A DNA stretch of 64,000 nt, taken from assembly GCA_964187785.1 (NCBI GenBank), contig OZ076409.1, forward strand, positions 74,650,001 to 74,714,000, given 5' to 3'. A program made the translations under genes and the position numbers. The stretch comes from Amphiscolops sp. MND2022 (taxonomy: Eukaryota). The notes beneath the pieces were generated by a model, which saw only the letters and a program-made list of their open reading frames with translations, ran no database searches and had not been told where the DNA came from. This document shows positions 1-60,337 of this stretch, in pieces; position 1 is the stretch's first letter, and the number at the start of each line of letters is the position of its first letter.

Positions 1-731
1 TTCAGCGTTCCAGGATTTCTTGAGTAAAAGATAAATGTCTTAGAATTTTTTCGAAAAATTTTCAAATTTTTTTTTTCATTTTCAGGCCTCCCAAAGTCAA
101 GAAACGTCCACACAACTAGTATTGCAAGTGGATGCATGTGGAAAGTGCTCGAATAGACGAGAAAAATGAGCTATTATAAACCTCTGTAGCTTAACCTGAC
201 GTTGACTTATGACAATTTTAGTGTGAGCTTCCTATGTGAGAAAAAATTTCAAAAATTGAAAATCGAAGTTAAGTCTCATCCAAAACTCATCGGAATACGT
301 TCAATCCATCCCAAAGCGGTTTGTTCCCAGTTGTAGAGTGCAGCAACACCATTCAAGGTCATTTGACCCACTTTAATAGGTTTTGACTTTGTCTTATCCA
401 TCCGAAAATTCGAAACAGTTAAGTACATTCCATCTCCCCTCCGTGGGAGATGGTAATGTACTCGCAAAAAGCCAAGTACTACCGCCCTATTCTACCCGTA
501 GTGGTGCTAGAAATGCAGTAGCGTGAGCTCCAGGTTGTTTGCAGTAGTCTCTATGTGTTATAATTATATTTTTCATAGCTAAAAATCTTACTAAACGTGA
601 TAAAAAAAATTACATCACTCAAAATTTTTTCAAATATTATTATATGTCCCCAATTGACGCACGTCAACTATTTCGCTACAACCACCCTACCACCCGGCCC
701 CTCGTATCTTTGTTCAACCGTACACGTCTAG
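1..731 (+). mobile_element. Array unit Z, 3' part only (related to B/F, different terminus)
   Basis: Shares the ccacacaactagtattgcaagt block and the agtacattccatctccc...gggagatgg hairpin with B/F. Ends gtctag|gtgg. Lacks the GGCATGCC box. Confidence 0.55.
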
Positions 732-2122
732 GTGGTTGGGGCGGTCCCCAGAACGCACAAGGAGGCGCGGGGAGGGTCCTGCGCCGACGTAGAATAATTT
801 CATATAATACTAGTATCCTACATGGGTGTTTTAGAAGCGATTTTGGAATCTAACCGTAGGATTTGGATAATTTTTTGCATGCGGCCATAACTCGAAATTC
901 TAAGAACTTTTTCCTACTGTCATTTTCCCCGCAAATTGTTTTTTGTTGACTTATGGCCGAAAAACCGGAAATAACGTCCTTTTTAGACGTTATATCCGAA
1001 GTGTCGTCATAACTTTTTTCCAGGGCATGCTAGCGTTCTCGTTCACTTTTACACTTAGTTGCAGCATCTCAAAATACAACTGGTGGAAAATTTTGGTTGC
1101 ATTCGGATCACCCCCCACCGAGATAGAAGGGTTCCCCCCTCCAGTTTTACCCCCCAAATTTGCAAAATAGCCAAATTTGAGCATGAAGCCGAGGATTTAG
1201 CGTACCCGCACTCTCCTGATGTTTTGTTGTACGTATTGAGGTCAATCTGACGACATGTGTGGTTTTCACCCCCAACTCCCCCCTTGGACCGGAAATGACA
1301 CTTTTTTGTGTTTTTTGGCAGAATTTAGCCTTTTTCATTATTAGGCAGTCGTTTTAGGGACTCCTAGCAGGATATCGAAATTGAAATACAACCTGATCAC
1401 AACCCAGTGACAACATGTTGGCCACTTGGAGGTATCATCATGACCGGAAGTGGGGTCAACCCCCCCTTTTTGTGACCGCTTTTTGACCTTGTGCACCAAA
1501 ATGCCAACATCTTGAGGCCTAATGAGGCATTCAAATCTGTACAAAGATAAAATGTTAGACAACCGAAGTCCCGGAAGATCTTTAGCATATACCGGAAGTT
1601 ACCCCCCATGACCGGAAGTTACCCAATGTGACCGGAAATGGTCCAAAAATTAATGTAAAGTTGAATTTTTCACTATTTCAAGACCACTTAATTGAAACTT
1701 TTCAATCTCAAAACTAGCGTACTGGCTTGTTTTGCTGAATTTATGGAAATTGATGAGCTCTATCGCCCCCGATAGCCTTCGAAGTTGACCTTGCGTCAAC
1801 TTTGGAGGCTATCGATAAAGAAAAATGAACAACAAAGTACATTGTTGCTCTCGTTTTTCTCCCGTTGTTTTTCCTCAAACATTCTTGAGACATATACATG
1901 GCCGTTAGTTGATATCAATATTTAGCCCATGTTATAGCTGGAGCAGCGAAGCGTTACACAGACTAGTGTGGTTTTGAAATCACACTATTTGAATTAACGA
2001 CTGACCGTCTTAGTCAACTCCACACACTCATACCAACGCCCACCGTCTGTGGGCATGCCGAGGCATGCCCTTCGACGACGTATGACGAATCCATTCCAAC
2101 GACACCCGCAGTCCTCAGCTAG
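732..2122 (+). mobile_element. Array unit A1 (family A, ~1390 bp, putative non-autonomous cassette)
   Basis: Starts gtggttggggcggtccccag and ends gtcctcagctag. Eight copies in the window. Confidence 0.7.
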
Positions 2123-3393
2123 GTGGCCGCGTCTTTTGTCGAACTTTAACCATGGAGGCGCGGGTAGGGTCCTGCGCCGACTTAGTGCCTTTACTATGAT
2201 ACAAAAATAGGTACCTGAGTAAACGATCTCGAAGATGAGCCGTCAGAAATTCCTGAAAATTTGCATGTGGCCCCCAATTGGCGAGCATATGAAAAGTGTA
2301 GGAGGTCATTTTTCCCAAATTCCACTGTGAGACGAGATAAACGCGAAAAATGAGGTAAAAAATGGACCCATTTTTGATAAATTTTGCAATATCTCGTTCC
2401 AGAGGCATCGGAGGTACCGTATACCTGACGTGGAAAATGCTCGGCATGTGAAGGGGGTTACGTGGACAAATTTTCGTCCAAATCGGATAAAAATTGACAG
2501 AGTAATAACAAATTTTTTTGTGCATTTTGGCGACTTTTTCAGAAAACCCAGTTTATCTCTGCCGTTTTTTGCCCAGATTTTTTTCTAGAACCTCTCCTAA
2601 AGGCCTCCCCTGGCCGGTTTATCTCCCAAAAAAACCATTTGGCCCTAAATACGAGGTTTCAGCGTTCTAGTTTTCCCCAGTAAAAAGTTATGGGACTTAG
2701 AAATTTTTCAAAAATTTTCAAATTTTTTCTAAAAAAGTTCAAGCCGCCCAAAGTGAAGAAACTTCCACACAACTAGTATTGCAAGTGAATGCATGTGGAA
2801 AGCCCTGCACTTGACGAGAAAAATGCCGTTTAGAACGTCTTTTTATCTTAACTTGATGTTGACTTATGATCTTTTGAGTAGCGTATAACACGTGATCACA
2901 GTAAAGAAAATCCTAATTTTCAAAAATTTTCAAACAATAACGCATGAAAAGAACCTGGAAAAGGTTCCGATGGATCAGTTGGGATGTCTGAAGCATGTGT
3001 ACATTTCCGTAGTGTATAGCGGATGTATTTGAGACTTATTAGAAATTGTGATAAATTTTATACAAGTCTTTGTTTCTCTTAGAATCTTATGCAGTTGAGT
3101 ACATTCCATCTCCCTCTCAGGGGAGATGTGAAAGTACGTTTGCCAAATGCCTTGTAAAGCTCACAATTTTGATGGATTCAAATAACTAAACAAGTGTGAT
3201 TTGCGTTTGCCGAACCACTGCGACAAAATATCCTAAATCTATAGCGAGATTGTATGGTTCTTGTCTTTAGTGTTTCGTCTTTGTAGCCGACTTCCACATC
3301 CAAATATCAACGCCCGCCGTCCGTAGGCATGCCGAGGCATGCCTTTCGACGACGTATGCCAAATACTTAATGCCACGCTGTCATTATCGCTAG
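2123..3393 (+). mobile_element. Array unit B1 (family B, 1271 bp)
   Basis: Starts gtggccgcgtctttt and ends cattatcgctag. Four copies. Confidence 0.7.
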
Positions 3394-5578
3394 GTGGAGG
3401 TTATTTTATAATAATTAAAGTGTTTTTTTCCGGAGTTTGTGGCTTTGGAAAAAACAAAAGGCGAGAAATTGGGCACTCCGGGCTGAACCGTATACACTCA
3501 AAATTCGCCCAATATTTATACGATCTCGAAACCCAGCCGTACGATTTGGCTGAAAATTTGCATGCGGCTAAAAAATCAGATTCTAAGAACTATTTCCTGC
3601 TGACATTTTTTTGAAATTTTTGTGTACGTTTCCCCCCCGCCCCCTAAAGGGGTCAATTTTCCCCAATTTTGCACTTTTTAGTCAAATTCTCAAAACTGGT
3701 GGATCTGAGCTTTTTCCCGATGGGGACAACTTTTAACAAGCGCTGTTCAGTAGACCTTTTTGACTTTTTACTTTGGTGGTACGTTCACCCCCCAAGGAGG
3801 AAATGGCGTTTTTGTGACTTCCGGTCGAGACTTTTTTCACCCAAAAAATAGAAATAAGCCAGTTTTGAGCAGGAAGGAGTGGATTTAAAGTGTCTGTACC
3901 CTGCTAAAAATTTGTGGGGCGTGTAGCGATATATCTCATAGCAAGTCTGGTTTTCACCCCCGAACCCCCCTCGAGACCAAAATTCACCCAAACGTTTTAC
4001 CTCTATTTGTGGTTTTTTCACAAAATGTCGTCATTTCCATCGGCAAAGATTTGAATTAGGGGCTCCTAATAGGGTACCAAAGTTCAAGTACACTTGGAGT
4101 GCAACTGAGTGACCCTTTTTGGGCCTCTCGTGTGTTCGGCAATAACCGGAAGTTGTATAAACCCCCCTTTTTTGACGTTTGTTGACCTTGAGACTCGCGC
4201 TTAGATGACGTTTATGTCGCGCAATTCCTACAAACCAGTATTAGAATGACATGCTAGCCAACTAGAGAGCAATAAGGGAAACTATACTATACCGGAAGTA
4301 ACCCCCTCTTGACCGGAAGTTGTCATTTTTGACCGGAAATGGTCCAAAACCTAGCGTGAAAGCTGTTTTTCATTGCTTTTAAAGTCAACTTATTACTTTT
4401 TTCACTCTGCGCGAGCTTGAATTCAGGTTCGTTAGTGTTGCCCGTACACACTGCAACAAATATACATCTGTAAAATTTTCGCTATAATATCGTCGGAGAG
4501 AGAAATAACGGGTTTTTGGGTTTTTTTTTCAAAAATATTAGTGTTTATCTGTCATTTTTACCCAACGTTATTGAACAGTAGAACCATAGGGGTTAGTCTT
4601 CGCCCAAATATATGCCTAACAAAAGCACTTGTCCCATTGGTTGCAGTTTGGGCGTTTTAGCTTTGCCTGGTCACAAGTTAGGGGACTTGAAAAACTTTCA
4701 AAATCATTTCCGAAATTTTTTTCTAAACGTCACGTCTCCCAAAGTTAAGAAACTTCCTCACAACTAGGACCGCAAGTGAATGCATGTGGTTAGACCTATA
4801 AATGGAGAGAAAAACTCCGTTTAGAACATCTCTTTATCGTAACGTGACGTTAAGAGATGTTGCTTTGAATGTGAATTTGATAATGCGTCGAGAAGTAAAA
4901 GTGTGTAAATGGAACCTTTGTCTCGATAAATACTCCTCGCAATACATGCGATGAACCCCAATTACCCTCAGTTTCAGTTGCTTAGTACATCAACGTCTTC
5001 CAAGGACCTTTTATCTATTTTGAAAATGTCGAAATCATTATTAATATCAGTTATCAAGAAACACATGAGCACATTCTCATCTCTCCCCATCGGGTGAGGT
5101 GAGAATGTTCTTGCTAAAAGCCAGGTACTACGGCCCCCTTTTGTTTTAATACGATGCATTCTCTGCTTTAGCTCATAGATATTTTTTTTCGCCTGATTGT
5201 TTGTATACTCTCTGACTTCTTGTTATAAATCTCTCGTCATTACTTTACATAAATATACAACCAAAAATCATTATCGTCAGCGCCACATACATTTAGACGC
5301 CCACCATTCCGTAGGTATGTCGAGGCATACCTTTCGATTACGTATGTCAAAACGCAAACGTGATAAAAAGTGCTGGAAGTCTCAAACAGTGACAAACAAA
5401 TTTGACTACTTGAAATATGGGAGGTTTTTATATGGAACTTACACATAGCTGACATTTCACAACTTTGCAGCTGACGCCCACATGCCAACATCAACGCCCA
5501 CCGTCCGTGGGCATGCCGAGGCATGCCCTTCGACGACGTATAGCAAATCCCTTTCACCGACGCGCACTCTCCCGCTAG
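3394..5578 (+). mobile_element. Array unit C1 (family C, ~2185 bp)
   Basis: Starts gtggaggttattttata and ends ctctcccgctag. Four copies. Confidence 0.7.
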
Positions 5579-6647
5579 GTGGTCAAGGGGGATGCCCATC
5601 AGAAAATATTGCGAGGCCGGGGAGGGTCCCGAGAGCCGAGCACATTCTATCAATTCCTACCTTCAGGATTGCGAAGTATTTTAACCGATCTCGAAATTCA
5701 CCCGTAGGATTTGTCTGAAACTTTGCATGTGGCTTTATCTCAAAAATTTAAGAATTTTTTTCTGCTGACGTTTTTCCAGGAAAATTCATTTTGTAGGGTT
5801 TTTTTGGGTTTTTTTGGTTTTTTTCATCTTTTTTCATCTTTGATTAATCAATGACCGAATCAAAGGCCATTTTCACCATGAAGGAAAGCCCGTAGCGGCA
5901 AAGTGCACTTTTATGAAAATCATCAACGGTCAACGGTCTTTCGAACGGTCCGAAAAAATTTCCCCCGGGGGAAACCAAAGTGCCGAAAAGTGCCAAAATT
6001 ATTTTTTTGACTGAATCACTTTGATCAAATTGATGATTTGAGCAGCCGGAACGGTCCGCACGGTCTCGGACAATAAGGTCAAAAATTGTCAGCATCCAAT
6101 GGGGGTTCCAAAAATGTAATTCGTTCACCTGTAGGAGACATCAGAAAAAAGTTGATTTTTTGGGGTATATGTCATTATGAGTGATTGGATGAGAAATAAT
6201 TGTATCACTTTCAGTTGGATATGATGCAGCACAGGAAGCAGCTGCAGCAAACTTGAAACTGATTATGGGGCTGGGGTTTACCCTCTGTATCGAGCAAAAC
6301 AGCCCTAGGGCATAAGTTGTGCCAAAAAATGCCTCAAAGTGATGATTAGGTTATTGCAAATCGTTCAGCAAAATTTATTGTCACCGGTGTTCCGAGAGTT
6401 GCGCAGCATCTCGCAGGAACAACGGTGCTTGCTTAGAAAGCAAAAAACCACAAAATCCCTTGAGTTAAGTTGACGGCAGTCACCATAGACATTCACTCGT
6501 CAGGGTGATGATAATTATCGTTCAATCCCAGAATAACTTACAAAAAATTGCTAGCCTCAATATTTCTTTTTCATACTCCATTAGCAAAGGTTGCGCTGTT
6601 AAGTTTAGGCCTTTTACTAGCAGTGCTCTAAATCGCTCCATCGCTAG
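5579..6647 (+). mobile_element. Array unit D1 (1069 bp, short relative of J)
   Basis: Starts gtggtcaagggg and ends ccatcgctag. Its 5' half is similar to J1. No GGCATGCC box. Confidence 0.65.
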
Positions 6648-8825
6648 GTGGATGGTATTTTATAACAATTAAAATGTTTTTTTCCGGAGTTTGTGGCTTT
6701 GGAAAAAACAAAAGGCGAGAAATTGGGCACTCCAGGCTGAACCTAAAAACACCCTAAAATTCGCCCGATTTTTTTACGATCTCGAAACCCAACCGTACGA
6801 TTTGGCTGAAAATTTGCATGTGGCTCCTAATCAATGAGTAATGAAAAAGTGTAGAAATGACTTTTCCTGGGAAAATTGTTTTTGTTGCACTTTTTGCGCA
6901 ATTTTTGACCGATTGTTGCGTTTTTTATGTCACTTTTGACTTTTCAGGCAAAAAACTCATGGATGCTTTGATCCTAGCGCATCCAGTGTTTCGACCAAAA
7001 AGTTGCAGCATGTTCTTTTACGTATGTTGAGAAAATTTGGTTGCCATCGTATTACCCCCCACTGAGATAGAGGGGGACTTCCGGTGGATTTTAGCACCCT
7101 AAAAACAAGGACCTCCTAAATTTCAGCATGAAGCGGTAGTTTTAGCGTGCTCATACCCTGCTGAAACTTTGTTGGGCATAATGAGATTGTCCTGATATCA
7201 TGTGTTCAGTTCACCCCCCATCACCCCCTGGACCGGAAATGAGCTTTTTTTGCACTATCATACCGGAAGTCTCCAATTTCACCGTTAAGCAGTCCTTGTA
7301 CGAGCAACTACCAGGACATCAAAATTGAAGTACCACCTGAGGTCAACATAGTGACCACGTGTTGTCCAATCATAGGTTCCGCTATGACCGGAAATGGGGT
7401 CAAAACCCCCTTTTTTGGTTGTTTTTTAACAATTTGACTAGTGTTTGGTCCACATTCAAGTCGCGTAAGTCAATTGAATCAGCGTGAGCATAAACTGTAT
7501 GTTCACTGCGTAGACGTAACTGACACTGACAGATACCGGAAGTAACCCCCCGTGACCGGAAGTTGTCATTTTTGACCGGAAATGGTCCAAAATGTAGCGT
7601 AAAATCAGTTTTTCACTGCTTTTTAAAGTCAACTTATTACTTTTTCAATCTCCGCGAGCTTGTATTCAGGTTCGTTTTTGTTACCCGTGCACTTTGCAAC
7701 AAGTATACATCTGTAAAATTTTCTCTATGATATCTTCGGATAGAGAAATAACATATTTTTGAGACTTTTTTCAAAAATATTAGACTATATCTGTCATTTT
7801 TACCCAAAGTTTTTCAACAGTACAACCACAGTGGTTAGTCTCTGCCCAAATTTATGCCTAACAAAACTATTTGGCCCATTGGCCTCAGTTTGAGCGTTCC
7901 AGCTTTGCGTGATCATAAGCTAAGGGACATGAAAAATTTTCGAACTTTTTTCAAAAAAAAATCTCACATTCATGTCTCCCAAAGTGAAGAAACTTCCACA
8001 CAACTAGGATTGCAAGTGGATGCCTGTGGCAAGCCCTATAATTGAAGAGAAAAATGCCGCTTAGAACGTCTCTTTATCGTAACTTGACGTTAACGTATGG
8101 TGTTTTGAATGTGAGCTTGATAAGGCGTCGAGAAGTCAAAGTGTGTAAATGGAACGTACGTCTCGTCGAAAACTCATCGGAATTCATGCAATGAACCCCA
8201 ATTGTCCTCAATGGCAGTTGCCTACTGCAACAACGTCTTTCTGGTACTTTTCACCCACTTTCATAAGTGTCAAAATTCTTTTTAAATTCAGTTAGCAAGA
8301 AGTACTTGAGTACATTTTCATCTCTCCCCAGCGGGTGAGATGAGAATGTTCTTGCTTAATGCCAGGTACTACGGCCCCCTTTTGTTTTAATGCGACGCAT
8401 TCTCTGCTTTAGCACATAGATATTTCATTTCGCCTGGTTTTTTGTATACTCTCTGACTTGTTATTATAAAGTTCTCGTCATTACTTTACATAAATTTACA
8501 ACCATAAATCGTTATCGGCAACGCCACATACATTTAGACGCCCACCATTCTGTAGGTATGTCGAGGCATACCTTTCGATTACCTATGTCATAACGCAAAC
8601 GCGATAAAAAGTGCTGAAATTCAGAAACAGTGAGAAACAATTTTCACTATTTGACATATGGTAGGTTTCTATAGGGAACTTACACATCACTGACATTTCA
8701 CAACATTCCAGCTGACGCCCACATACCAACATCAACGCCCACCGTCCGTGGGCATGCCGAGGCATGCCCTTCGACGACGTATGCCAAATTTTTTAAAATC
8801 TACACCCAATTGCGGTAGCTGCTAG
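6648..8825 (+). mobile_element. Array unit E1 (family E, ~2178 bp)
   Basis: Starts gtggatggtattttata and ends gcggtagctgctag. Four copies. Confidence 0.7.
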
Positions 8826-10213
8826 GTGGTTGGGGCGGTCCCCAGAACGCACAAGGAGGCGCGGGGAGGGTCCTGCGCCGACGTAGAATAATTTCATATA
8901 ATACTAGTATCCTACATGGGTGTTTTAAAGGCGATTTTGGAATCTAACCGTAGGATTTGGATAATTTTTTGCATGCGGCCATAACTCGAAATTCTAAGAA
9001 CTTTTTCCTACTGTTATTTTCCCCGCAAATTGTTTTTTGTTGACTTATGGCCGAAAAACCGGAAATAACGTCCTTTTTAGACGTTATATCCGAAGTGTCG
9101 TCATAACTTTTTTCCAGGGCATGCTAGCGTTCTCGTTCACTTTTACACTTAGTTGCAGCATCTCAAAATACAACTGGTGGAAAATTTTGGTTGCATTCGG
9201 ATCACCCCCCACCGAGATAGTAGGGTTCCCCCCTCCAGTTTTACCCCCCAAATTTGCAAAATAGCCAATTTTGAGCATGAAGCCGAGGATTTAGCGTACC
9301 CGCACCCTTCTGATGTTTTGTTGTACGTATTGGGGTCAATCTGACCACATGTGTGGTTTTCACCCCCAACCCCCCCTGGGACCGGAAATGACATTTTTTT
9401 GTGTTTTTTGGCAGAATTTAGCCTTTTTCATTATTAGGCAGTCGTTTTAGGGACTCTTAGCAGGATATCGAAATTGAAATACAACCTGATCACAACCCAG
9501 TGACAAAATGTTGGCCACTTGGAGGTATCATCATGACCGGAAGTGGGGTCAACCCCCTTTTTGTGACCGCTTTTTGACCTTGTGCACCAAAATGCCAACA
9601 TCTTGAGGCCTAATGAGGCATTCAAATCTGTACAAAGATAAAATGTTAGACAACCGAAGTACCGGAAGATCTTTAGCATATACCGGAAGTTACCCCCCAT
9701 GACCGGAAGTTACCCAATGTGACCGGAAATGTTCCAAAAATTAATGTAAAGTTGAATTTTTCACTATTTCAAGACCACTTAATTGAAACTTTTTAATCTC
9801 AAAACTAGCGTACTGGCTTGTTTTGCTGAATTTATGGAAATTGATGAGCTCTATCGCCCCCGATAGCCTTCGAAGTTGACCTTCCGTCAACTTTGGAGGC
9901 TATCGATAAAGAAAAATGAACAACAAAGTACATTGTTGCTCTCGTTTTTTTCCCGTTGTTTTTCCTCAAACATTCTTGAGACATATACATGGCCGTTAGT
10001 TGAAATCAATATTTAGGCCATGTTATAGCTGGAGCAGCGAAGCGTTACACAGACTAGTGTGGTTTTGAAATCACACTATTTAAATTAACAACTGACCGTC
10101 TCAGTCAACTCCACACATTCATACTAACGCCCACCGTCTGTGGGCATGCCGAGGCATGCCCTTCGACGACGTATGACGAATCCATTCCAACGACACCCGC
10201 AGTCCTCAGCTAG
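8826..10213 (+). mobile_element. Array unit A2
   Basis: Colinear with A1 between CTAGGTGG junctions. Confidence 0.7.
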
Positions 10214-11485
10214 GTGGCCGCGTCTTTTTGATGGACTTTTATCCTTGAGGCGCGGGTAGGGTCCTGCGCCGAGCTGGTGAAAATATACTACGTCCAAATC
10301 GCCCGTTCCGGAAACGATCTCAAAACTGGCCCGTACGATTTTCCTGAAAATTTGCATGTGGCCCCCAATTGGCGAGCAATGAAAAAGTGTAGGAGGTCGT
10401 TTTTCCCAAATTCCACTGTGAGAGGAGATATATGAAAAAAACGGACCCCAAAATGACGAAATTTTCACTTTTTGACCATTAATGGGACATTATCTCCTCA
10501 GACAAGGCTCGCAGCGACATTTGTCAGAACCCAAACCTGCAGCAGACTGTTAGAGCAGTGCACACAGTAAGTTTGAAGGAAATCGGATAATCACATGTGG
10601 AGAAATTGACGTTTTTCCGGCGAAATTTTTCGCAAATGCAGTCTATCTCTGCCGTTTTTTGCCCAAATTTTTTTCGAGACCCTCTCCTAAAGGCCTCCCC
10701 TGGCCCAATTTCCTTCCAACAAAACCATTTGGCCCTAAATACGAGGTTTCAGCGTTCCAGCATTCCCCAGTGAAAAGTTATGGGACTTAGAAATTTTTCA
10801 AAATTTTTCAAATTTTTTCTAAAAAAGTTCAGGCCGCCCAAAGTGAAGAAACTTCCACACAACTAGTATTGCAAGTGAATGCATGTGGAAAGCCCTGCAC
10901 TTGACGAGAAAAATGCCGTTTAGAACGTCTTTTTATCTTTACTTGATGTTGACTTATGATCTTTTGAGTAACGTATAACACGTGATCACAGTAGTGAAAA
11001 TCCTAATTTTCAATAATTTTCAAACAATAACGCATGAAAAGTATCTGGAAAGGTTCCGAAGGGTCAGTCGGGATGTCTGAAGCATGTGTACATTCCCGTA
11101 GTGTATAGCGGATGTATTTGGGACTTATTAGAAATTGTGATATAATTTATACAAGTCTTTGTTTCTCTTAGAACCTTATGCAGTTGAGTACATTCCATCT
11201 CCCTCTCAGGGGAGATGTGAATGTACGTTTGCCAAATGCCTTGTAAAGTTCACATGTTTGATGGACTTAACTAAAAAAAACAAGTGTGAGTTGCGTTTGC
11301 CGAATCGCTACAGCAAAAAATACTAAAACTTTAGTCAGATTGAATGGTTTTTGTCTTTAGTGTTTCTTCTTGTATAGCCGACTTCCACATCCAAATATCA
11401 ACGCCCACCGTCCGTAGGCATGCCGAGGCATGCCTTTCGACGACGTATGCCAAATACCCAATGCCACACAGTCTTTCCCCGCTAG
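10214..11485 (+). mobile_element. Array unit B2
   Basis: Family B start gtggccgcgtc; ends ctttccccgctag. Confidence 0.7.
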
Positions 11486-35800: not shown

Positions 35801-35952
35801 CTTTTTTTCACACCATGTGACTCAACTATAACATGTATGTAATGAAACCAATAACACCTTCAACTATCAACGCCCACCGTCCGTAGGCATGCCGAGGCAT
35901 GCCTTTCGACGACGCGCGCCGAAAACAATTCAACGGCGCCACCCGCTTCTGG
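32881..35952 (+). mobile_element. Array unit H1 (family H, ~3072 bp, CTGG end)
   Basis: Starts gtggtcagtgctg and ends ccacccgcttctgg. Four copies. Confidence 0.7.
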
Positions 35953-38900: not shown

Positions 38901-39024
38901 ATGTACGTAATGAAACCAATAACACCTTCAACTGTTAATCAACGCCCACCGTCCGTAGGCATGCCGAGGCATGCCTTTCGACGACGCGCGCCAAAAACAA
39001 ATTAACGGCGCCACCCGCTTCTGG
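35953..39024 (+). mobile_element. Array unit H2
   Basis: Colinear with H1, more diverged. Confidence 0.7.
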
Positions 39025-42000: not shown

Positions 42001-42098
42001 CACCTTCAACTATCAACGCCCACCGTCCGTAGGCATGCCGAGGCATGCCTTTCGACGACGCGCGCCGGAAACAATCTAACGGCGCCACCCGCTTCTGG
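39025..42098 (+). mobile_element. Array unit H3
   Basis: Colinear with H1 and H2; a mosaic of both. Confidence 0.7.
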
Positions 42099-47070: not shown

Positions 47071-48341
47071 GTGGCCGCGTCTTTTAGATGGACTTTTAGC
47101 CCTGAGGCGCGGGTAGGGTCCTGCGCCGAGCTGGTGAAAATATACTACGTCCAAATCGCCCGTTCCGGAAACGATCTCAAAACTGGCCCGTACGATTTTC
47201 CTGAAACTTTGCATGTGGCCCCCAATTGGCGAGCAATGAAAAAGTGTAGGAGGCCATTTTTCCCAAATTCCATTGTGAGAGGAGATATATGAAAAAAACG
47301 GACCCCAAAATGACGAAAATTTCACTTTTTGACCATTAATGGGACATTATCTCCCCGGACAAGGCTCGCAGCGAAATTTGTCAGGACCCAAACCTACAGC
47401 AGACTGTTAGAGGAGTACGCACAGTAAGTTTGAAGGAAATCCGATAATCACATGTTGAGAAATTAACGATTTTTTGACAAAATTTTTTGCATTTGCAGTC
47501 TATCTCTGCCGTTTTTTGCCCAAAATTTTTTCGAGACCCTCTCCTAAAGACCTCCCCTGGCCGGTTTACCTCCCAAAAAAACCATTTGGCCCTAAATACG
47601 AAGTTTCAGCGTTCTAGCATTCCCCAGTGAAAAGTTATGGGACTTAGAACTTTTTCGAAAATTTTCAAAGTTTTTCTAAAAAAGTTCAGGCCGCCCAAAG
47701 TGAAGAAACTTCCACACAACTAGTATTGCAAGTGAATGCATGTGGAAAGCCCTGCACTTGACGAGAAAAATGCCGTTTAGAACGTCTTTTTATCTTATTT
47801 TGATGTTGACTTATGATCTTTTGAGTAGCGTATAACACGTGATCACAGTAGTGAAAATCCTAATTTTCAAAAATTTTCAAACAATAACGCATGAAAAGAA
47901 CCTGGAAAAGGTTCCGATGGGTCAGTTGGGATATCTGAAGCATGTGTACATTTCCGTAGTGTATAGCGGATGTATTTGAGACTTATTAGAAATTGTGATA
48001 AATTTTATACAAGTCTTTGTTTCTCTTAGAATCTTATGCAGTTGAGTACATTCCATCTCCCTCTCAGGGGAGATGTGAATGTACGTTTGCCAAATGCCTT
48101 GTAAAGCTCACAATTTTGATGGATTCAAATAACTAAACAAGTGTGATTTGCGTTTGCCGAACCACTGCGACAAAATATCCTAAATCTATAGCGAGATTGT
48201 ATGGTTTTTGTCTTTAGTGTTTCGTCTTGTGTAGCCGACTTCCACATCCAAATATCAACGCCCGCCGTCCGTAGGCATGCCGAGGCATGCCTTTCGACGA
48301 CGTATGCCAAATACCCAATGCCACGCTGTCATTATCGCTAG
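47071..48341 (+). mobile_element. Array unit B3
   Basis: B2-like 5' part and B1-like 3' part; 1271 bp. Confidence 0.7.
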
Positions 48342-51300
48342 GTGGTCAGTGCTGTTGCGTTCATTTTTTTCCGGCCGTGGGGGAGGGCCCCTCTGAGGCC
48401 GGTCATTTTTCAGGTAACAGCTTTCTTATACAAAAAAGCGGGAAAAAACCTCAGTGCTCAAATCCCAACCGTCAGAATGAGCTGAAATTTGGCATGTAGC
48501 TAGTGCATTGCAAATGATTAGGATGGGTTATAACGCTATGTTTGGCAAAATTGGTTTTGTTGCATTTTTTTTGTCATATAGGGCCAAAAATGGCCTTTTT
48601 TGCGTATTTTTTGCTTGACTAGCTAATAACTCGCGTTGGGTTGGTACTAGCGATACGGGTGTGGGGTATGGAATTGAAAGATTACCAAGTACCTAGCTGA
48701 TGACGTTATTTGATTTCCGCTCACATCACCCCCACGCCGGAAATGCCCAATTTGTCACTTCCGGTCGCTATTTTTGACTTTTTTGGATGGAGTTAAAACC
48801 CATTTCCGGTGTGAAGGAGTAGGTTGAGCGCTCCAACCACGATTTACTAAAAGTAGGTTTAGACAAAGTCCTTTCAAGAAAAAAGTAATATGAGCCCGTA
48901 CCTATCACCCGCTCACCGGAAATAGGGGTCACGCCTCCTTTTTCTGTGTTGCAAAAGTGACATGTGCACATTTGTCCAACTCCGAAGCCCCGGAGCACCG
49001 TGGGACCCTTATACTTTCTAAACACCTATCCCCCACGCTACCGGAAGTGACCGGAAGTTTCACCGGAAATGACATCCTTGGACCGGAAATGGTCAAAAAA
49101 TGACTTTTCAATGCAAAATAGACACATTTGGTGCGATTTTTAGGCAAAAAGCATAGTTCGTGAAACGCTTGTTGCAGTTGGAAGGGCCATTGTTCAGCAA
49201 GAATGCGTACAGCATTACGTAGCACATCAAGTAGTTGATACTTTTTCGTCCATAATATCCTTAGGACCGGAAATGGCCATTTTTGAATCGGAAACTTCTT
49301 CAGCTTGATTTTTAACAGGTTTTTCCGCAATATTAGCGTAGGAATTGCTCGTCGGATGCTGTAGGTCTATTTTAAAACTAGCTAACTGCTTCTTAGAAAT
49401 GTATTTCAGAAGTCCCAACCAATTCCAGAATACCGGAAATAAGAGTAATTGCCTCCTTTATGACCTTTGAATAATAAATTGTTAAAATCCGCATATTATT
49501 TTTTTCTACACTTGTTGCTGAGATTATATCTAAGCAATAACATGTGCTTGTCATGAAGTGCTGTAATGTGGGAGTTACGAAGATTGCTATTTAAGAGTAT
49601 TACATACGTGAATATCCGCCGTAATAAAGATTTTTTAAAACAACCACTTTTGAAGTCCTATAGATTGTCCGCACACCCGAAACAATTCAAGTTTCTAGTT
49701 CCGATTTTAAGGCTTCCGCGACTATTTAGTTGAGATGATAGTTTTCACGTTCTCTGCAAAACGTGCATTTCATTGTGTTTTTGACATTTATTGGGCTGTT
49801 TCACATTGTAATTCAAAACTAATTGATCATACAATTTGGAACAATTGAAAATTTTCAATTGAACATTAAATGTTTTAATAGTTTCTCTTTCGTTGAAGAT
49901 ACTATTTTGTGGCCATTAGAACAGGTTGAATTAGTTGAATAAGTAGCCAGTGCGATACATCGTTTAATACATAGCGTTTGACATCGGTTTTTTTGCGAAC
50001 AAAGACAAGCATGATTTGTTGAAAGTTTTTACCATATCGCTTCAAATCGGGTGTGACAAACAAGGAATTTCTCGTTTTATGTGCTACTCCGAAAGCAACC
50101 TGAAAACGCAAATCGATCTATTGAATTATCGAGATGAAACTAAGCATTTCAAGTCTGGATTTCAATTTAATTCTATCACTCCGGTCTATTTTTATGTCGC
50201 AAGAGTGATAAAGCGTGTTAGCAAGGTTAAACACATCGAACAATTTTAATAATAAAGCCTCCGGAAAGGGAAGAAAAAATGAGTTTTCCTGTCAAAACTA
50301 TGATAACCACGTACGAAACATCAAGTTTTTGTATTGTTCAATAGTCCAAAACGTGAATGAAGTTTTTAAATATCCAAGCGTTTCTAATCAAGCATGCGTT
50401 TCAAATGTCTGACAGGGCAGCATCGTTCTCAAAAAACATTGCTTTCAATGTGGTTTGATACCAGCAAAACGAACGTAGGCACAACCAGATTCTCAAATTT
50501 CTTGCAAAACAGCCGATTTCTTTGAAAATCCTAATTGATTTCACAGGGTATATGGTGAAACCCTGTTGGATTCCAAAAATGAAAAGCTGATTTCTTGGGT
50601 TTGCGAGATAAAAGACAACGGGAATCTGAAAGCAAGTCATCTCAATAAAATACCTGTTGCTCTTTAAACAAATGGACTTTAGTAGTCGAAATTTTTTCTC
50701 AGACACTTTCGATCAGAGAATGTTTGAGTCCTAACGTTCGAATCAGGTTGGTTTCAGGTGGCTCGAAGTGCCAGCTGAACCAACCTTTCAAATAAAGAAA
50801 AACCCCACATCTCCCTTCATGCCACGCTACCCCGTATAGCGTTTCAACTTGACAGAAGTTGGAACGTTTGATTTTGGCGTCGCTTGGGATTGACACACCA
50901 GTGTTGATACTAAATTTGGCAAAGAGAAATCGCAGAAAAGATTGTTTCTTTTTTTCCCTTTGATTTAGTCTGTCGAGCGTACAAAGCAGTTTGGGAAACT
51001 AACTTGCATTTCCACTGAACGAAAAAAAGTAGTAGCCTTGCAAACTCCTGGAAGAAATTGAATCAGGTTTTCCTATTTGTGAGATCAGCTGTCACTCAAT
51101 AATCAATTACTTTTTTAAAAATTTTTAGGAACAACTAACCTAACTCTGCTCGACTCTCTTGAATAATGCAACAATCGTTTACTGATCTGTACTCGTGAGA
51201 AAAAAATCAACTGCAGGTCCAAAAACAATCTATATATCTTTGGTTTATTCCGTGCAAAGCTTTTTTTCACACCATGTGACTCAACGATAACATGTATGTA

Positions 51301-51411
51301 ATGAAACCAATAACACCTTCAACTATCAACGCCCACCGTCCGTAGGCATGCCGAGGCATGCCTTTCGACGACGCGCGCCGGAAACAATCTAACGGCGCCA
51401 CCCGCTTCTGG
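48342..51411 (+). mobile_element. Array unit H4
   Basis: Very similar to H1 and flanked by B units. Confidence 0.7.
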
Positions 51412-52682
51412 GTGGCCGCGTCTTTTAGATGGACTTTTAGCCCTGAGGCGCGGGTAGGGTCCTGCGCCGAAACAGAGAAATTATACTACTGCACACAGCC
51501 CCGGTCCAGACACGATCTCGAAAACTGACCGTTAGAAATTCCTGAAAATTTGCATGTGGCCCCCAATTGGCGAGCAATGAAAAAGTGTAGGAGGTCGTTT
51601 TTCCCAAATTCCACTGTGAGAGGAGATATATGAAAAAAACGGACCCCAAAATGACGAAAATTTCACTTTTTGACCAAAAATGTGACATTATCTCCTCAGA
51701 GAAGGCTCGGAGCAAAATTTGTCAGAAACCAAACCTACAGCAGACTGTTAGAGGAGTGCACACAGTAAGTTTGAAGCAAATCGGATGATCACATGTGGAG
51801 AAATTGACGTTTTCCCGGCGAAATTTTTCGGTAAAGCAGTCTATCTCTGCCGTTTTTTGCCCAAAATTTTTCCCAGACACTCGCCTAAAGGCCTCTCCTG
51901 GCCGGTTTACCTCCCAAAAAAACCATTTGGCCCTAAATACGAGGTTTCAGCGTTCTAGCTTTCCCCAGTAAAAAGTTATGGGACTTAGAACTTTTTCAAA
52001 AATTTTCAAAATTTTTCTTAAAAAGTTCAGGCCGCCCAAAGTGAAGAAACTTCCACACAACTAGTATTGCAAGTGAATGCATGTGGAAAGCCCTGCACTT
52101 GACGAGAAAAATGCCGTTTAGAACGTCTTTTTATCTTAACTTGATGTTGACTTATGATCTTTTGAGTAGCGTATAACACGTGATCACAGTAGGGAAAATC
52201 CTAATTTTCAATTTTTTTCAAACAATAACGCATGAAAAGAACCTGGAAAAGGTTCCGATGGGTCAGTTTGGATGTCTGGAGCATGTGTACATTCCCGTAG
52301 TGTATAGCGGATGTATTTGGGACTTATTAGAAATTGTGGTATATTTTATACAAGTCTTTGTTTCTCTTAGAATCTTATGCAGTTGAGTACATTCCATCTC
52401 CCTCTCAGGGGAGATGTGAATGTACGTTTGCCAAATGCCTTGTAAAGTTCACATGTTTGATGGATTAAACTAAGTAAACAAGTGTGAGTTGCGTTTGCCG
52501 AATCGCTACAGCAAAAAATACTAAAACTTTAGTCAGATTGAATGGTTTTTTCTTTAGTGTTTCTTCTTGTATAGCCGACTTCCACATGCAAATATCAACG
52601 CCCACCGTCCGTAGGCATGCCGATGCATGCCTTTCGACGACGTATGCCAAATACCCAACGCCACACAGTCTTTCCCCGCTAG
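51412..52682 (+). mobile_element. Array unit B4
   Basis: Family B with a B2-type tail; the palindrome carries one substitution (ccgatgcatgcc). Confidence 0.7.
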
Positions 52683-55600
52683 GTGCGCCGGGGTGTTGTC
52701 CCCAGCCCTTTCCGCCGGCGAGGGTAGGGTTCCCTTCGCCGGCTTGAACTTCGCGAAGCCAAGCTTACGTATTAGCAAACATGCCCCCTAAAAAATGCGA
52801 TCTCGAAAATGAACCGTCAGAACCGGCTAATTTTTTGCATGCACCCATATTTTGGGAAGACAAGAATTTTTTTCTGCTGACGTTTTGCCGAAAAAACACT
52901 CCTTCATGTTTTTTTTTTCGGGTTTTTTTGGTTTTTTTCTCATCTTTTTCATCCGTGATTAATCAATCACCGAATCAAAGGCCATTTTCAGTATGAAGCA
53001 GTGCCCATAGCAACAAAATGGATATGTACAAAAATCATCAATGGTTAACGGTCTTTCGAACGGTCCAAAAAAATTTCCCCCAGGGGGCACGGAAAGTGCC
53101 GAAAAGTGCCAAAGTATTTTTTTTGATTGAATCATTTTGATAAATTTGATGATTTGAGCAGCCGGAACGGTCCGCACGGTCACGGACCATGAGGTCAAAA
53201 AGTGTCAGCATTCAATGGTGGTTTCAAAAATACAATTCATTCACCTGTAGGGGTCGTATTAAAAAAGTCGATTTTTTGGGGTGTATCGCTTGATGAGCTA
53301 CGATGAAATTTTTTACACAGTACTTTTCATTCAAATACTCAACACGCAGCACCATTAGCAGCAAAAGTCATACGTTTGAAAAAGATCAGGGGGCTGGGCT
53401 CTTTCCACGGTACTACTGCAAAGTAGGCCTAGGGCAATGAATGTGCCAAAAAATGCCTTATAGTGAGGAATGATTTTTTGCAAATCTGCTCATGTTAACA
53501 AACATGTTAATTCCTGGTCATCAACGGTCCGCACGGTCTTAAACAATATGGTCAAAAAAAGTCAGTGAGCTATGGTGACATCGATAATGACATTCGATAA
53601 CCTCTGGGGGTCCTATGAAAAAAATTATTTTTTTTGAGTCACGGTCCGAGTTGATCTCATACGTCGTATGAACATTTCATAATCATGTTACTCATAACCG
53701 AGCACACATAGCACCGTGGGTCTTTTCTATGAAAATGAACATTGGGCAGCTGTCTAACGATGGAAAGCAAAAAACATACCCTAGTTGCAATTGTGAGAGA
53801 AAAAAGTTCTCAGAAGTGTTATATTCAATTTTTCATGTCGACTCGGACTTACAAAAATGTGATTTTCTCTTTAGGAACGGTCCGAACGGTCTCGGGCCAT
53901 ATGATCAAAATTTGTCAGTGTGATATGGTGGCGCCCAAAAACACATCAGAACACTGGTAGGAAGCTTCTGAACGATTTTGGAATTTTCGCGTGGGTCCGA
54001 GAGTTATAGTGTCACATCGTAACTACATTTCGGGTATGCATATCTCCTCACAGAGTACAGATAGCATCATGGGTCACCTTTTCGAAAAAGAACGTGGGCC
54101 ACTGGTCTATCGGTTGGTCATAAAAAGTTTTCAGTCACTGATGCACGGCGTGAATAATACGCCAATATGGGGTATTTAGCATTTTTTTGCACTACTCGGA
54201 CCTACAAAAGGCCCATTTCTGCTCCACCAACGGTCCGTACGGTATTCGACCATAAGGTCAAAAAGTGTCAGTGTGCCACAGTGACGCCCAAAAACCAATC
54301 AGTACACTTGTAGAGTGCTTCTGAAAAAAATTGATATTTTTAGGTGAGTCTGAGAGTTATAGAGAGTTATGTTGTCACATCGTAACTGCATTTCGGGTAC
54401 GTATATCTCCTGACAGAGTACAGATAGCAACATGGGTCATCTTTTGGAAAGTAAACGTTGGCCACTGGCCTACCAAATGGTGATAAAAAGTTTCCACCAG
54501 TTGCTACAGGGAGTGATAAAAGTGCTTACATGGGTTACATAGCATTTTTTCAGGCGACTCGGACTTACAAAAAGCTCATTTGCTCGCGAACAACGGTCTA
54601 TACGGTCTCCACTCATAGGGTCGAAAATTTTGCGTGGGCTATGGTGACGCACAAAAACCCATTTGTTTACTTGTGGGATCATTCGGTAAAAATTTAGTGT
54701 TTTCGTGCAGACTATGTTACATATTATATTTGGAACCGTGTTTTTTTCTCACCAAATTTATGTTTTTGAGTGCCCAAAAACCATTTTTAAAGCCCAATAG
54801 CCACCTAAAATGGTCTTTTGCATAACATGGGATGCGAATAACGTAAAGAAAGTGCTCACTGTGGATTTGGAGTCATTTCGAAAAAATCAGGTGCCATTAG
54901 ACGTTACATTACAGAAAATCGTACCTTACATATCGATATATGGGTTGAGTGAAAATCAACTAAAGTGCTTTTTCACTCAACCAAGACTCCGTTTTGGTCA
55001 TAACCAAGTATACAGCTGACGTGGAACACATATTGACCTTTCACAATGGTTACATTGCTAATTTGAGTATCAAAAGGTATGTTGACAAACAAAAGTTCAA
55101 GATAAATTTTGTTTCCAATTCGTTTTTTGACGTATACGACCACCAATTTTTGCCAACAAACATCAACTATCCCCTTCTGTTAGTCCAGTGGCATGTGAAA
55201 AAGACAACTGGGCCTTGACAAGGCACATGCACTATATTTCGAGTAGTCATGAGCAACAATATTTTCGATTCAATTGTAAAATTTGTCTGAAATTGATAAA
55301 ACATCGCATTTTTGTTGGAGTCGAATTGAGAAAATGGAGGTTTATCAGCAACTATTAAGTTTTAGAGCAACCCACTGGCACTTTTATTTAAGAAAACGAT
55401 GTTTACAGTACTTTCAAGGTACTTTTTTGAATCTGAAGTAGCTAAAAATATCAAACTGAATAAACATATGACTTCAACTTCGGCATTTTTCCGGATGTGT
55501 CACCACTTTTTTGGTATCGGCGGTCCTACTAAGACTGTATTTGGTCTAACAGGTAACTTGACAATCAGCCAAAGTAGTTAACAGACTTGTAAAACAATCC

Positions 55601-57570
55601 AAGGCAATTTCATATGTCAAAAGTAGTAATGAGAAGAAATCTTTCTCAAAAATTCATATCATGTGTCAAATTTCAGTCCACCTTTTTATAATCGGTGCTT
55701 GTTGGTTATGGTATCAACGCTCAACAACAAGCTCACTGGCAAGAAGCAACTTGTTTCTAGTTATAAAAAGTATTTATAAAACTACCATGCTCGTTCTTGA
55801 CAGATTTTTCATCCCATTCGTTCTCAACATGAAAAAATTTGTTCCCGAAAACCCAATTTTTGCATGGTCGAAAATTGAATTTTTGTCATTTGAGCAACAA
55901 CATTGTGCCTGACATAACCTGTGGCCCTCAAAATACTCAAAAACGAAAGTGTGACTGGTATCAAATGCTTCAGTGACATGTGAGTCGCGATAACACGTTT
56001 TGCGAAGAAAAATTCAACTTTCAAGTGGATATTTTTAAGACACATTTTCATAATGAAAACAGAATTCATAGAAAACTAACCTATTTCCCGTCAAATACTA
56101 TTGATATACTATCAGTGTTGCTAATATGAGGTCTATACAGCGGCGTATGGGAAAAATGTGGCGCATAAAGCATTGCATAACACAAAGCTTACCGAAGTAC
56201 TGAGAATTTTTCACTGTACTTTTTGCACTCTATCACGAAAATTTGATAGTGTAAACATCAAAGAGCAGTTCAATTTAGTACATTTACTCAACTTGGCATA
56301 TATTTCAAAGTGCTTGATCTCTCCATCATTCAAAACTCTTTTGTTACGGCTTAAAATAATCATACGGTTTAAAACGCATTCTTCATTAATAGATGTATTA
56401 CCAAAGACTGATTCACCTTTACGGTAGCTAACCAAAATGTCAATAGGTTCAAAGGCTCTCACTACTTGGACTTTTCAGACTCTATAGATTTGACAACCTA
56501 CTCACGTTGATAACATTTGCTTATTGTAGAAATGAGATTGAAACATGTTTTTTGGAAACAGCTGATAACTGCATCTTTTGATAGCCTTCCAGGTTGGCCT
56601 TGTGTCAACTTGGGAAGGCTATCACTACAAAAAACAAAAAACTAGGTTTTCGTTTTGATAGGTATTTGCGGTTGATTATTTCATTCAACTTTCTATTGTC
56701 CCACAAATTGATACAAGTGGTCAACAGACCTTTTTCAGAATCCGTTAACCGAAATTGAAGTTAATGAATACATTTTTCATTGTTTCTCTTTTTCCGGATT
56801 CAACTTGAATTTCGTGAATTTGTTAAGTACTGTTCAATCACAATAATCGTTGTACACCCCTATTAGCTTCACGAAGCCACCGGCCACCCCACATGACATT
56901 ATAACGTAAGTTCCTCTGTTTAATAAGGCTTTCATAAGTGGTGTCATAGTGTGGAAAACAAATCGCATGGAAAAATACATGGTCATGGACAAAAATCAGC
57001 AAGTCCTGGTGACAAACGTTTAGTATAAACTTCGTTCTCCCAGTTAATATACTTTACAGAAAATCTTCTTTCATTATTTTAGACAATTCATAAAACAGAA
57101 AATTTTTCCAACAACGTTTCGGAGACATAAATTAATTTTATAAGAGGAAGACAAAAATCAAAACATTTCGCATGTTAGCTGGGTCAGGTTCGTTCCCCTT
57201 TTCCGTAGAAAGATTACCGCATCCACCACTTTCAACGCCAATTTCACTAATATTTGGAGAAAAAAATGTTCACGATTCAGACACATTCATATCTAGGAAA
57301 ATTGACCAATTACCACAATTCAATCTTTACCGTGAGTTCAGCCAATGACAGTGCGTCTTTCGACTAATGAAGAGCGGGGGCTATCTTTGCTTTCTTTCCA
57401 CAACAGTTACCATTAACAATCCATTGGCAATATGATGACATGTATCATTCAATCACAAACAACTTTTCTCCAACACATGTCTTACGCTGGACGTAGTTCA
57501 AGAAATTTTTCTATCTTTCCTGTCAAACGTCCGTCATATCTAGTGCTTAGAGTTGAGCTGCCATCGCTAG
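52683..57570 (+). mobile_element. Array unit J1 (4888 bp, longest unit, related to D)
   Basis: Starts gtgcgccgggg and ends ccatcgctag like D1. Contains an internal ~356-bp tandem repeat and unique distal sequence. Confidence 0.6.
53160..54700 (+). repeat. Degenerate ~355-bp tandem repeat (about 5 periods) inside unit J1
   Basis: An AACGGTC-[CG/TA]-NACGGT...GGTCAAAA-like anchor recurs at ~53166, 53523, 53876, 54229 and 54592 (spacings 357, 353, 353, 363). Confidence 0.8.
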
Positions 57571-58302
57571 GTGGTTGGGGCGGTCCCCAGAACGCACAAG
57601 GAGGCGCGGGGAGGGTCCTGCGCCGACGTAGAATAATTTCATATAATACTAGTATCCTACATGGGTGTTTTAGAGGCGATTTTGGAATCTAACCGTAGGA
57701 TTTGGATAATTTTTTGCATGCGGCCATAACTCGAAAATCTAAGAACTTTTTCCTACTGTCATTTTCCCCGCAAATTGTTTTTTGTTGACTTATGGCCGAA
57801 AAACCGGAAATAACGTCCTTTTTAGACGTTATATCCGAAGTGTCGTCATAACTTTTTTCCAGGGCATGCTAGCGTTCTCGTTCACTTTTACACTTAGTTG
57901 CAGCATCTCAAAATACAACTGGTGGAAAATTTTGGTTGCATTCGGATCACCCCCCACCGAGATAGAAGGGTTCCCCCCTCCAGTTTTACCCCCCAAATTT
58001 GCAAAATAGCCATTTTTGAGCATGAAGCCGAGGATTTAGCGTACCCGCACCCTCCTGATGTTTTGTTGTACGTATTGGGGTCAATCTGACGACATGTGTG
58101 GTTTTCACCCCCAACCCCCCCTTGGACCGGAAATGACACTTTTTTGTGTTTTTTGGCAGAATTTAGCCTTTTTCATTATTAGGCAGTCGTTTTAGGGACT
58201 CCTAGCAGGATATCGAAATTGAAATACAACCTGATCACAACCCAGTGACAACATGTTGGCCACTTGGAGGTATCATCATGACCGGAAGAGGGGTCAACCC
58301 CC
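57571..58302 (+). mobile_element. Array unit A8, 3'-truncated (right end of the array)
   Basis: Matches family A for ~730 bp, then switches to unrelated sequence after ggggtcaaccccc. Confidence 0.75.
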
Positions 58303-58540
58303 ATTACGATACACATGCCGGTACGAACTAGCAGGATCCTGCTAGTTCGATTTTTGTCCAATCAGAGCGCGAATATTTTTTTTGGAAGTTTTACACTTTT
58401 CTCACATTACGCGCATTGATAGGCCGTTACACTCGTTGATTTTGCTACGTACGTTGACTAGTTTACACCATTGGATAGTACAGTAATTGACTAGCTTACA
58501 CCATATGACTAGTTTAAGCAATTTGACTAACTACACTGTG
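58303..58540. repeat. Unclassified repeat/transposon end with a 26-bp perfect palindrome and short subrepeats
   Basis: cgaactagcagga|tcctgctagttcg at 58324-58349. TGACTAG(T/C)TTACACCA-like motif 3-4 times at 58454-58536. Abuts the broken A8 unit. Right boundary uncertain. Confidence 0.45.
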
Positions 58541-60235: not shown

Positions 60236-60337
60236 CCACGGTACCACGATAGAGTCTATTAAAAACTAGAGATAGAGTCTATTGAGCCTCGAGCCTTCCG
60301 AGTTGAGGAATTCCTGTTGAGGTATTCGAATATTTAG

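Follow-up and report, generated by a model that had tools for sequence, protein, structure and literature searches.

One-directional arrays of Helitron-like elements in Amphiscolops sp. MND2022 and their probable integration at the junctions of resident units

Introduction

The DNA analysed here (64 kb, C1:74,650,001-74,714,000, contig OZ076409.1, from the 1.07-Gb assembly of Amphiscolops sp. MND2022; the whole stretch is hereafter called the window) carries a head-to-tail array of non-coding units of several families, which abut without spacers. Such a locus raises two questions: where does one unit end and the next begin, and how did units of different families come to be joined so exactly and in a single orientation? 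The window units are the non-coding partners of 12–17 kb elements with the same ends, which lie in the same arrays and encode a Rep-helicase (RepHel) transposase. We consider it probable that the locus is a one-directional array of autonomous and non-autonomous RepHel elements of the form GTG[G/C]…CT[A/G/T/C]G (inserted without target duplication), and that their transposase integrates preferentially at the end|start junctions of resident units (the bar marks the cut).

Junctions, Cut Site and Host Target

The word CT[AG]GGTG occurs in the window 30 times on the plus strand (26 CTAG, 4 CTGG) and once on the minus strand; in 100 base shuffles of the window the count averaged 4.4 and never exceeded 12. 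No open frame of at least 150 aa is present in these 64 kb. A region of 264 kb around the window holds 148 junctions (one match within a coding frame was excluded beforehand) and 147 units of 32 families at 80% identity. The junctions comprise 103 CTAG|GTGG, 37 CTAG|GTGC, 5 CTGG|GTGG and one each of CTGG|GTGC, CTCG|GTGG and CTTG|GTGG; the 3′ end is of the CTRR type (CTAG or CTGG) at 146 of the 148, the others being the single CTCG and CTTG, and 38 junctions have GTGC starts. Within each of the 12 largest families of this region the first four nucleotides are constant, as are the last four in 11 of them, the remaining family having a single CTTG variant. The first-pass annotation of the window had noticed that the base before GGTG travels with the upstream unit, and this holds: CTGG ends all four copies of the H family, whether the next unit is H (twice), family 7 or family 4. 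Equally, the base after GGTG differs in the window for unit J alone, which starts with GTGC. Its description of the 3′ end as a Helitron-like CTRR and of the start (GTG) as non-canonical also stands. The junctions at 6644 and 57567 were considered as insertions into non-end DNA, a reading that was rejected, since families 10 and 27 genuinely end there.

Junctions within the array are unable to place the cut, and element ends facing host DNA were therefore examined. A genome-wide pattern, with one family end fixed to …GCTA, the next four bases free and A or T at the fifth, matched 23 right edges against host DNA, all of which end in CTAG. The first base after CTAG is G in 10, A in 8 and T in 5 of them, the second is T in 23/23, and T also occupies the second position in 10 of 11 more right edges collected by hand. 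Among 20 hand-collected left flanks (one start placed by eye), positions -4 to -1 read C in 17, T in 19, any base, and G in 17. Genome-wide searches found no family-1 start without T at -3, and a single case of the commonest GTGC start without C at -4. The host target is thus roughly CTNG|DT, similar to the element’s own end joined to its own start, as the first-pass annotation had expected of a circle junction; looser host targets (GTCC, TTCA, CCAG, TTTA) are also seen.

Solo copies could be compared with empty paralogous sites in two sets, as had been suggested for placing the cut. For the copy at L098, inserted in a host repeat that we take to resemble a tRNA-like short repeat, all 11 printed empty paralogues (of 19 fetched) read …GCTAGCTAG|ATCTGTC…. 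For the copy at L107, which also lies in a host repeat, all seven fetched (of 11 hits) read …GAATGTCC|TTCAAGG…. In both filled sites GTG…CTAG is inserted between the same bases, with no target-site duplication. The L107 empty site (GTCC|TTCA) has no base in common with the element end or with GGTG; this fixes the element as exactly GTG…CTAG and the cut as CTRG|GTG, duplication being absent. GGTG is the last base of one unit followed by the first three of the next.

These sites bear directly on the proposal of the first-pass annotation that units recombine through a 4-nt GGTG direct-repeat core in a Crypton- or Replitron-like manner. GGTG does stand at 148/148 array junctions, as these were defined; the join was correctly placed within or at the edges of GGTG (the cut lies after its first G), and units are indeed inserted without duplication. 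The direct repeats said to bound each unit are another matter: GGTG is kept at only 3 of the 23 host right edges, the L107 empty site contains no base of such a core, and the partner gene is a RepHel, with no tyrosine recombinase family among the 13 open reading frames of array elements that were scanned. GGTG is thus neither a core nor a Crypton-like terminal repeat, which removes the Crypton- or Replitron-like reading; refuted by the empty sites, it retains next to no credence.

Two side observations concern the host flanks. The repeat at the L098 solo copy has hundreds of candidate copies (L137-L155), some of them in tandem at 258-bp spacing on C11. Also, L103:4040-6398 and L105:3982-6341 have 2.4 kb in common at 94%, including the 3′ element end and right flank and excluding the left flank, and this stretch could be a larger repeat that has captured an element end.

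Terminal Signals

A motif GGG(N)AGGG(N)CC, part of a 5′ subterminal hairpin, lies about 40 nt inside the start at 127 of the 148 junctions, which had been defined without it. In an arm-swap folding test, hairpin arms paired with their own partner at a mean of -7.9 kcal/mol versus -5.4 kcal/mol with the arm of another type, and the own arm was better than at least 90% of swaps in 18/37 start types. The hairpin is predicted to serve as a transposase recognition signal. Close to the other end, a 3′ subterminal palindrome has 4,737 exact matches in the genome versus 0 for a control pattern; it is found in most families, is absent from families 6, 10 and 27, and is likely the termination hairpin. 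Asymmetric terminal inverted repeats were not found: the longest match is 4-6 nt in 30 of 31 families and 8 nt in one, and its mean is 5.1, vs 4.9 across families.

Autonomous Partners

At 9.5-21.5 kb upstream, the array that includes the window contains a 12,047-bp unit with the same ends as the window units. It encodes a Rep-helicase (its frame broken by a stop and a frameshift), which we take to be the kind of enzyme that mobilises the window units, and has a second frame of 338 codons. An intact natural RepHel lies, for example, at C1:71,019,362-71,026,408. Its Rep region has 114 matches in the genome, of which about 70 by hand count fall in open frames longer than 2,100 aa; the 34 matches within C1:70.5-76.5 Mb are all on the plus strand (hand count). 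Ten out of ten diverse RepHel loci (33-95% identity) are located in such arrays, both flanking junctions having been read for nine and the downstream junction alone for the tenth. All 20 RepHels inspected carry the HUH and YxxKY/YxxSY motifs, in agreement with the HUH-type chemistry anticipated in the first-pass annotation. Pfam assigned Helitron_like_N (PF14214) and PIF1 (PF05970) to the array RepHels with weak matches, and a C-terminal GIY-YIG domain above cut-off to 5/9, this domain being degenerate or missing in several lineages. DUF6570 was found in 0/9 array RepHels, versus 5/5 other long RepHels of the same genome, and no match to an apurinic/apyrimidinic (AP) endonuclease was obtained in array RepHels by Pfam.

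The second gene was modelled from an alignment of 11 sequences (pLDDT 74.7). The best Foldseek matches of the model are RPA and the baculovirus LEF-3 (E-values 1e-4 to 1e-3, low TM-scores), and the gene is predicted to encode an OB-fold single-strand binding protein. Extra frames of 217-275 codons occur in some autonomous lineages (L044:4237-4887, the L047 region, L037:3602-4426), and one autonomous RepHel has an N-terminal OTU-like match.

Formation of the Arrays

One end type is followed by GTG[GC] 663 times in the genome versus 23 host flanks; as the host-flank filter passes about half, approximately 93% of these ends are estimated to be in tandem. The C1 array, with its left edge at 70,454,838 and its right edge at 76,487,313, is likely continuous over about 6 Mb, continuity being judged from the sampled parts. 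Out of 102 unit pairs with at least 97% identity, a common upstream neighbour was seen in one and a common downstream neighbour in one (background 1.0%). The left neighbour differs among all four near-identical autonomous copies of 12 kb, and family 1 has downstream neighbours from 10 different families and upstream neighbours from 12. Since near-identical units have unrelated neighbours, units appear to arrive singly.

This order bears on the possibility that the arrays are rolling-circle concatemers or end-bypass products, that is, multi-unit circles copied and re-inserted as proposed for the tandem Helitrons of bats and plant centromeres. Tandem Helitrons are known (PMC5876387, PMC5148889), and same-family runs (H-H-H in the window, and the excess of same-family neighbours given below) as well as a duplicated dimer would fit such an origin. 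The mixing of 32 families in 264 kb, the sharing of neighbours at background rate on each side and the many partners of family 1 all speak against it, and joining different families would still require junction-specific integration; as the main route it is largely refuted, and we regard it as improbable. Another possibility is that the host reshuffles unit order, as happens in satellites, through homologous recombination or gene conversion acting between arrays; common internal blocks and the 3′ palindrome could supply the homology. Yet in 19 of 21 family-1 copies (another has one change) and in 5/5 H copies, the final 14 nt, located 3′ of the palindrome, travel with the upstream unit, and the ends of solo copies at empty sites are exactly the same, making this explanation more improbable still.

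Alternatively, the transposase might read the short target CTNG|DT alone, the arrays then being due to copies re-inserting close to their donor, to a chromatin domain permissive for insertion and to the loss of insertions elsewhere. Regional clustering of families, the loose host targets and the near-miss insertions 16 and 79 nt from an end agree with this. Against it, 146 units (248 kb) contain 322 + 568 = 890 internal CTNG|DT sites on the two strands, all unused, compared with 148 junctions that are exact and co-oriented; no minus-strand unit start was found in these 146 units, whose lengths are family-typical. Recognition beyond six bases is therefore needed, and we hold target reading by the hexamer alone to be unlikely. 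Internal CTRG|GT is depleted on the transposed plus strand in the 264 kb (9 vs 81 on the other), a bias that selection against spurious end or target signals would produce, and this helps the short-target explanation partly at most.

Several observations weigh against preferential integration at resident junctions, or against its being the only process at work. Unit order is not fully random: same-family neighbours number 27 versus 16.5 ± 3.4 in local shuffles, families form domains within arrays, and one two-unit block is duplicated at 99.8-99.9%, which implies a contribution from local hopping, or from some copying of concatemers or segments. At two junctions (L113 and L088) the units are separated by spacers, 16 and 79 nt long, and one of the 11 further right edges (L077) carries A at the second position. 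Edge units are no older than inner ones, the right-most units being 97.0-98.8% identical to their nearest relative, with an array median of 98.1%. The hairpin motif is lacking from 21 of the 148 starts, namely 19 of the GTGGA type (three families, with another hairpin) and two near variants. Purging of insertions from gene-rich DNA could also inflate the tandem fraction, and the circle and transposition steps are proposed for elements known here from their sequence.

Preferential integration at end|start junctions can be pictured as follows. Directed by the 5′ hairpin, some 40 nt inside the element, RepHel would nick at CTNG|GTG, unwind the top strand and nick again after the terminal CTNG, in Helitron-type strand displacement. 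The circle would close with a CTAG|GTG junction, by analogy with Helraiser and its CTAG|TC, and this junction would read exactly as those of the arrays do. The same HUH active site would then nick the target, and we propose that targets resemble the circle junction for this reason, as in IS91. Circles would integrate at nicked resident end|start junctions; carrying the full signal (CTAG|GTG and the hairpin), a resident junction would be a far better target than a bare 6-mer. Every insertion would add another perfect junction, and the array would grow in one orientation. The GIY-YIG domain, degenerate in several lineages, may help to open the target.

An array of 135 kb at C1:38.04-38.17 Mb (L084-L088, L282-L291) has 67 units of one family set on its 5′ side and 17 of another on its 3′ side, a layering that suggests sub-lineage-specific or local targeting. 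In the RepHel clusters at C2:102.0-103.9 Mb and C3:2.4-3.9 Mb, orientation switches once, from minus to plus, with arms pointing apart. A centromere role was considered and is unsupported, since the large clusters (C1 70.5-76.5 Mb, the C2 end and near the C3 start) are not one per chromosome. In Meloidogyne, HLE1-type elements lie between satellite arrays at centromeres (PMC13404089).

Lineage and Relatives

In a search with the array protein, Helraiser, a canonical Helitron (HLE1), was not listed at E <= 1, and the array-protein profile reached it at E = 0.29; the genome’s own HLE1 matches Helraiser at 8.6e-193. Three RepHel lineages coexist in this genome: the array type, dispersed canonical HLE1 and several DUF6570-bearing families of HLE2 (L214-L231). 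Two trees place the array proteins and their database relatives opposite HLE1 + HLE2 (support 99 and 100), both being built by quick methods with long branches and with HLE1 and HLE2 references from the same genome only (HLE1 with 3-4 copies). Judged by the predicted enzyme, the array elements are Helitron-like and belong to neither HLE1 nor HLE2.

The array-protein profile matched 279 clusters at E <= 1e-30, some of them from the same genome or close kin. The nearest Atlas clusters combine PIF1 with GIY-YIG, in 88% of the members of one and 98% of those of a second, to which a few diatom records belong. Scanning metagenomes yielded 42 loci, most of them of insufficient length for ends or arrays to be recognised, and no relatives were found in viral contigs with the two alignments searched. 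The same GGGGAGGGTCC hairpin recurs in a distant element, found in L256 and L257, where it precedes the first frame by about 1.6 kb. These two occurrences were the sole matches in 356 kb, and neither a GTG start nor an array was observed at the two loci. The literature examined describes no GTG…CTAG elements, GIY-YIG RepHel clade or mixed-family self-targeted arrays; Repbase, subscription journals and the HELIANO supplementary tables lie beyond this coverage and may hold members. Apparently, this is a branch of rolling-circle (Helitron-like) transposons not yet described.

Organization of the Window

The features of the window are listed in Table 1. Over 3.1-3.6 kb, unit J shares 82-84% identity with units of 4.4-4.9 kb from a different array. 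The last family-1 unit is split by an unrelated insertion of about 12.2 kb, which occupies positions 58302-64000 and continues to about 6.5 kb past the window. It has imperfect terminal inverted repeats of about 20 bp starting CATTACGATAC, a C-run of 2-3 nt at its edges and nested repeats inside, with no frame of at least 170 aa.

Table 1. Units and signals in the window (positions count from its first base).
Feature	Position	Strand	Remarks
Array of 29 complete non-coding units, 10 families, 1.07-4.89 kb	732..57570	+	GTG[G/C]…CT[A/G]G, head-to-tail, no spacer
Family 6 unit (1,291 bp), 3′ part, ends CTAG	1..731	+	Start 559 bp before the window
Example junction CTAG|GTGG	728..735	+	Cut between 731 and 732
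Remaining unit starts, first half	2123, 3394, 5579, 6648, 8826, 10214, 11486, 13657, 15050, 16322, 18500, 20686, 22074, 24265, 26456	+	
Remaining unit starts, second half	28832, 30222, 31493, 32881, 35953, 39025, 42099, 44276, 45682, 47071, 48342, 51412, 52683, 57571	+	
Family 1 (‘A’), 1.39 kb	732..2122, 8826-10213, 13657-15049, 20686-22073, 28832-30221, 31493-32880, 45682-47070	+	
Family 4, 1.27 kb	2123..3393, 10214-11485, 47071-48341, 51412-52682	+	
Family 3, 2.19 kb	3394..5578, 18500-20685, 22074-24264, 24265-26455	+	GTGGA start, different 5′ hairpin
Family 10, 1.07 kb	5579..6647	+	Without 3′ palindrome
Family 7, 2.18 kb	6648..8825, 11486-13656, 16322-18499, 42099-44275	+	GTGGA start
Family 12, 1.27 kb	15050..16321, 30222-31492	+	
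Family 2, 2.38 kb	26456..28831	+	
Family 11 (‘H’), 3.07 kb	32881..42098; 48342-51411	+	Ends CTGG; three tandem units, then a fourth copy
Family 5, 1.4 kb	44276..45681	+	
‘J’, intact 4.89-kb unit	52683..57570	+	GTGC start
Family 1 unit, 5′ half	57571..58301	+	Split by the insertion of ~12.2 kb; 3′ half resumes ~6.5 kb past the window
5′ subterminal hairpin, motif GGG(A/T/G)AGGG(N)CC at 769-779	764..785	+	Predicted transposase recognition signal
3′ subterminal palindrome GGCATGCC-GAG-GCATGCC plus TTCGACGACG	2051..2080	+	~45-55 nt before the end

Significance

How Helitrons choose and open their targets is still an open question, and known members mostly show a 2-nt preference. In the present genome, thousands of junctions reveal the target rule, which agrees with that of bacterial IS91; together with many intact and diverse natural transposases, this makes target capture by a eukaryotic HUH enzyme directly testable. 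With slightly better than even confidence, we see in these elements a widespread third RepHel lineage of eukaryotes, GIY-YIG-bearing, with an HUH transposase that integrates site-specifically at its own origin junction, and whose families, numbering in the dozens, and roughly 70 intact transposase genes give rise to one-directional, cassette-like arrays of up to about 6 Mb, at once a selfish ‘safe harbour’, chromosome-scale domains and a natural sequence-targeted integrase. If self-targeting is true, it would be a new route for a DNA transposon to avoid genes and would create repeat domains of megabase size, distinct from both satellites and nested insertions. Annotation software that relies on TC…CTRR ends or on inverted repeats would overlook or misname such elements, and a junction-specific, duplication-free integrase moving units of 1–17 kb has potential use in genome engineering.

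Comparison with Known Systems

Canonical Helitrons (HLE1, e.g., Helraiser) resemble the array elements in several respects: a Y2 Rep fused to a Pif1 helicase, no target duplication, a 3′ CTRR end usually with a subterminal hairpin, a T just 3′ of the cut and a single-strand binding gene (predicted here) downstream of RepHel (PMC5876387, PMC11417382). In Helraiser, circles join CTAG precisely to the start, and cleavage at that junction has been proposed (PMC5876387). Unlike HLE1, the array elements start with GTG[G/C] instead of TC, insert at CTNG|DT instead of A|T and have a conserved 5′ hairpin. A|T insertion does not describe these sites, as G precedes the cut in 17/20 left flanks and the T that follows it stands at the second position rather than the first. 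Tandem Helitrons of bats, flies and plants have been attributed to rolling-circle products (PMC5876387, PMC5148889), whereas the arrays described here mix families unit by unit. Membership of HLE1 is rejected on the GTG start, the target and a transposase that stands apart from the Helraiser type in searches and trees.

With HLE2 (Helitron2/Helentron, FoHeli) the array elements have in common a RepHel of more than 2,000 aa and a hairpin near the 5′ end. A few HLE2 target preferences extend beyond two bases, TNAT|T for FoHeli1/2 being one (PMC3627910, PMC5148889, PMC11417382). One Sphagnum HLE2 family carries GIY-YIG, and HELIANO left at least four Helitron-like (HLE) clusters from 19 genomes unclassified (PMC11417382). 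Unlike HLE2, the arrays lack asymmetric terminal inverted repeats (8-15 bp in HLE2), DUF6570 and any AP endonuclease match, show no T|T or T|C target, and form a separate branch in both trees. HLE2 membership is likewise rejected, on the missing inverted repeats, the absence of DUF6570 (0/9) and the different target.

Replitrons are eukaryotic HUH transposons with oriented, site-selective insertion too, yet they have a Y1/HUQ Rep without helicase, measure 2-4 kb and bear short terminal direct repeats (PMC10288648); the fused helicase, the Y2 Rep and the lack of terminal direct repeats in the array elements exclude them from this group. Crypton membership is rejected on the absence of a recombinase among the 13 scanned frames and of a core at empty sites.

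Further parallels are offered by a third clade of Helitrons in Paramecium, which fall outside HLE1 and HLE2, have very long open reading frames, keep a strict orientation in one genomic compartment and have ends (CCAA) that match their own target (PMC13085455). These insert into and are flanked by telomeric C4A2 repeats, whereas the flanks of the arrays are other units or ordinary host repeats; GIY-YIG is unmentioned in the portions of the text and of the seven supplement files of that paper used here, and the two groups are set apart by description. As for target choice, the IS91 family (IS91, IS801, IS1294, IS1294b) is bacterial and has no fused helicase, and self-stacking arrays are not described in the part of the source relied upon (PMC13181058). 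It nevertheless combines a Y2 HUH enzyme with insertion free of duplication, and its targets are 4-nt words 5′ of the nick that resemble its own terminal 4-mer: CTTG, GTTC, GTCC or CTCG, always with T second, the end of IS91 itself being CTCG (PMC13181058). In the array elements, too, T occupies position -3 of the left flank, in 19 of the 20 collected, and CTTG, CTCG and GTCC are all encountered among their junctions and targets.

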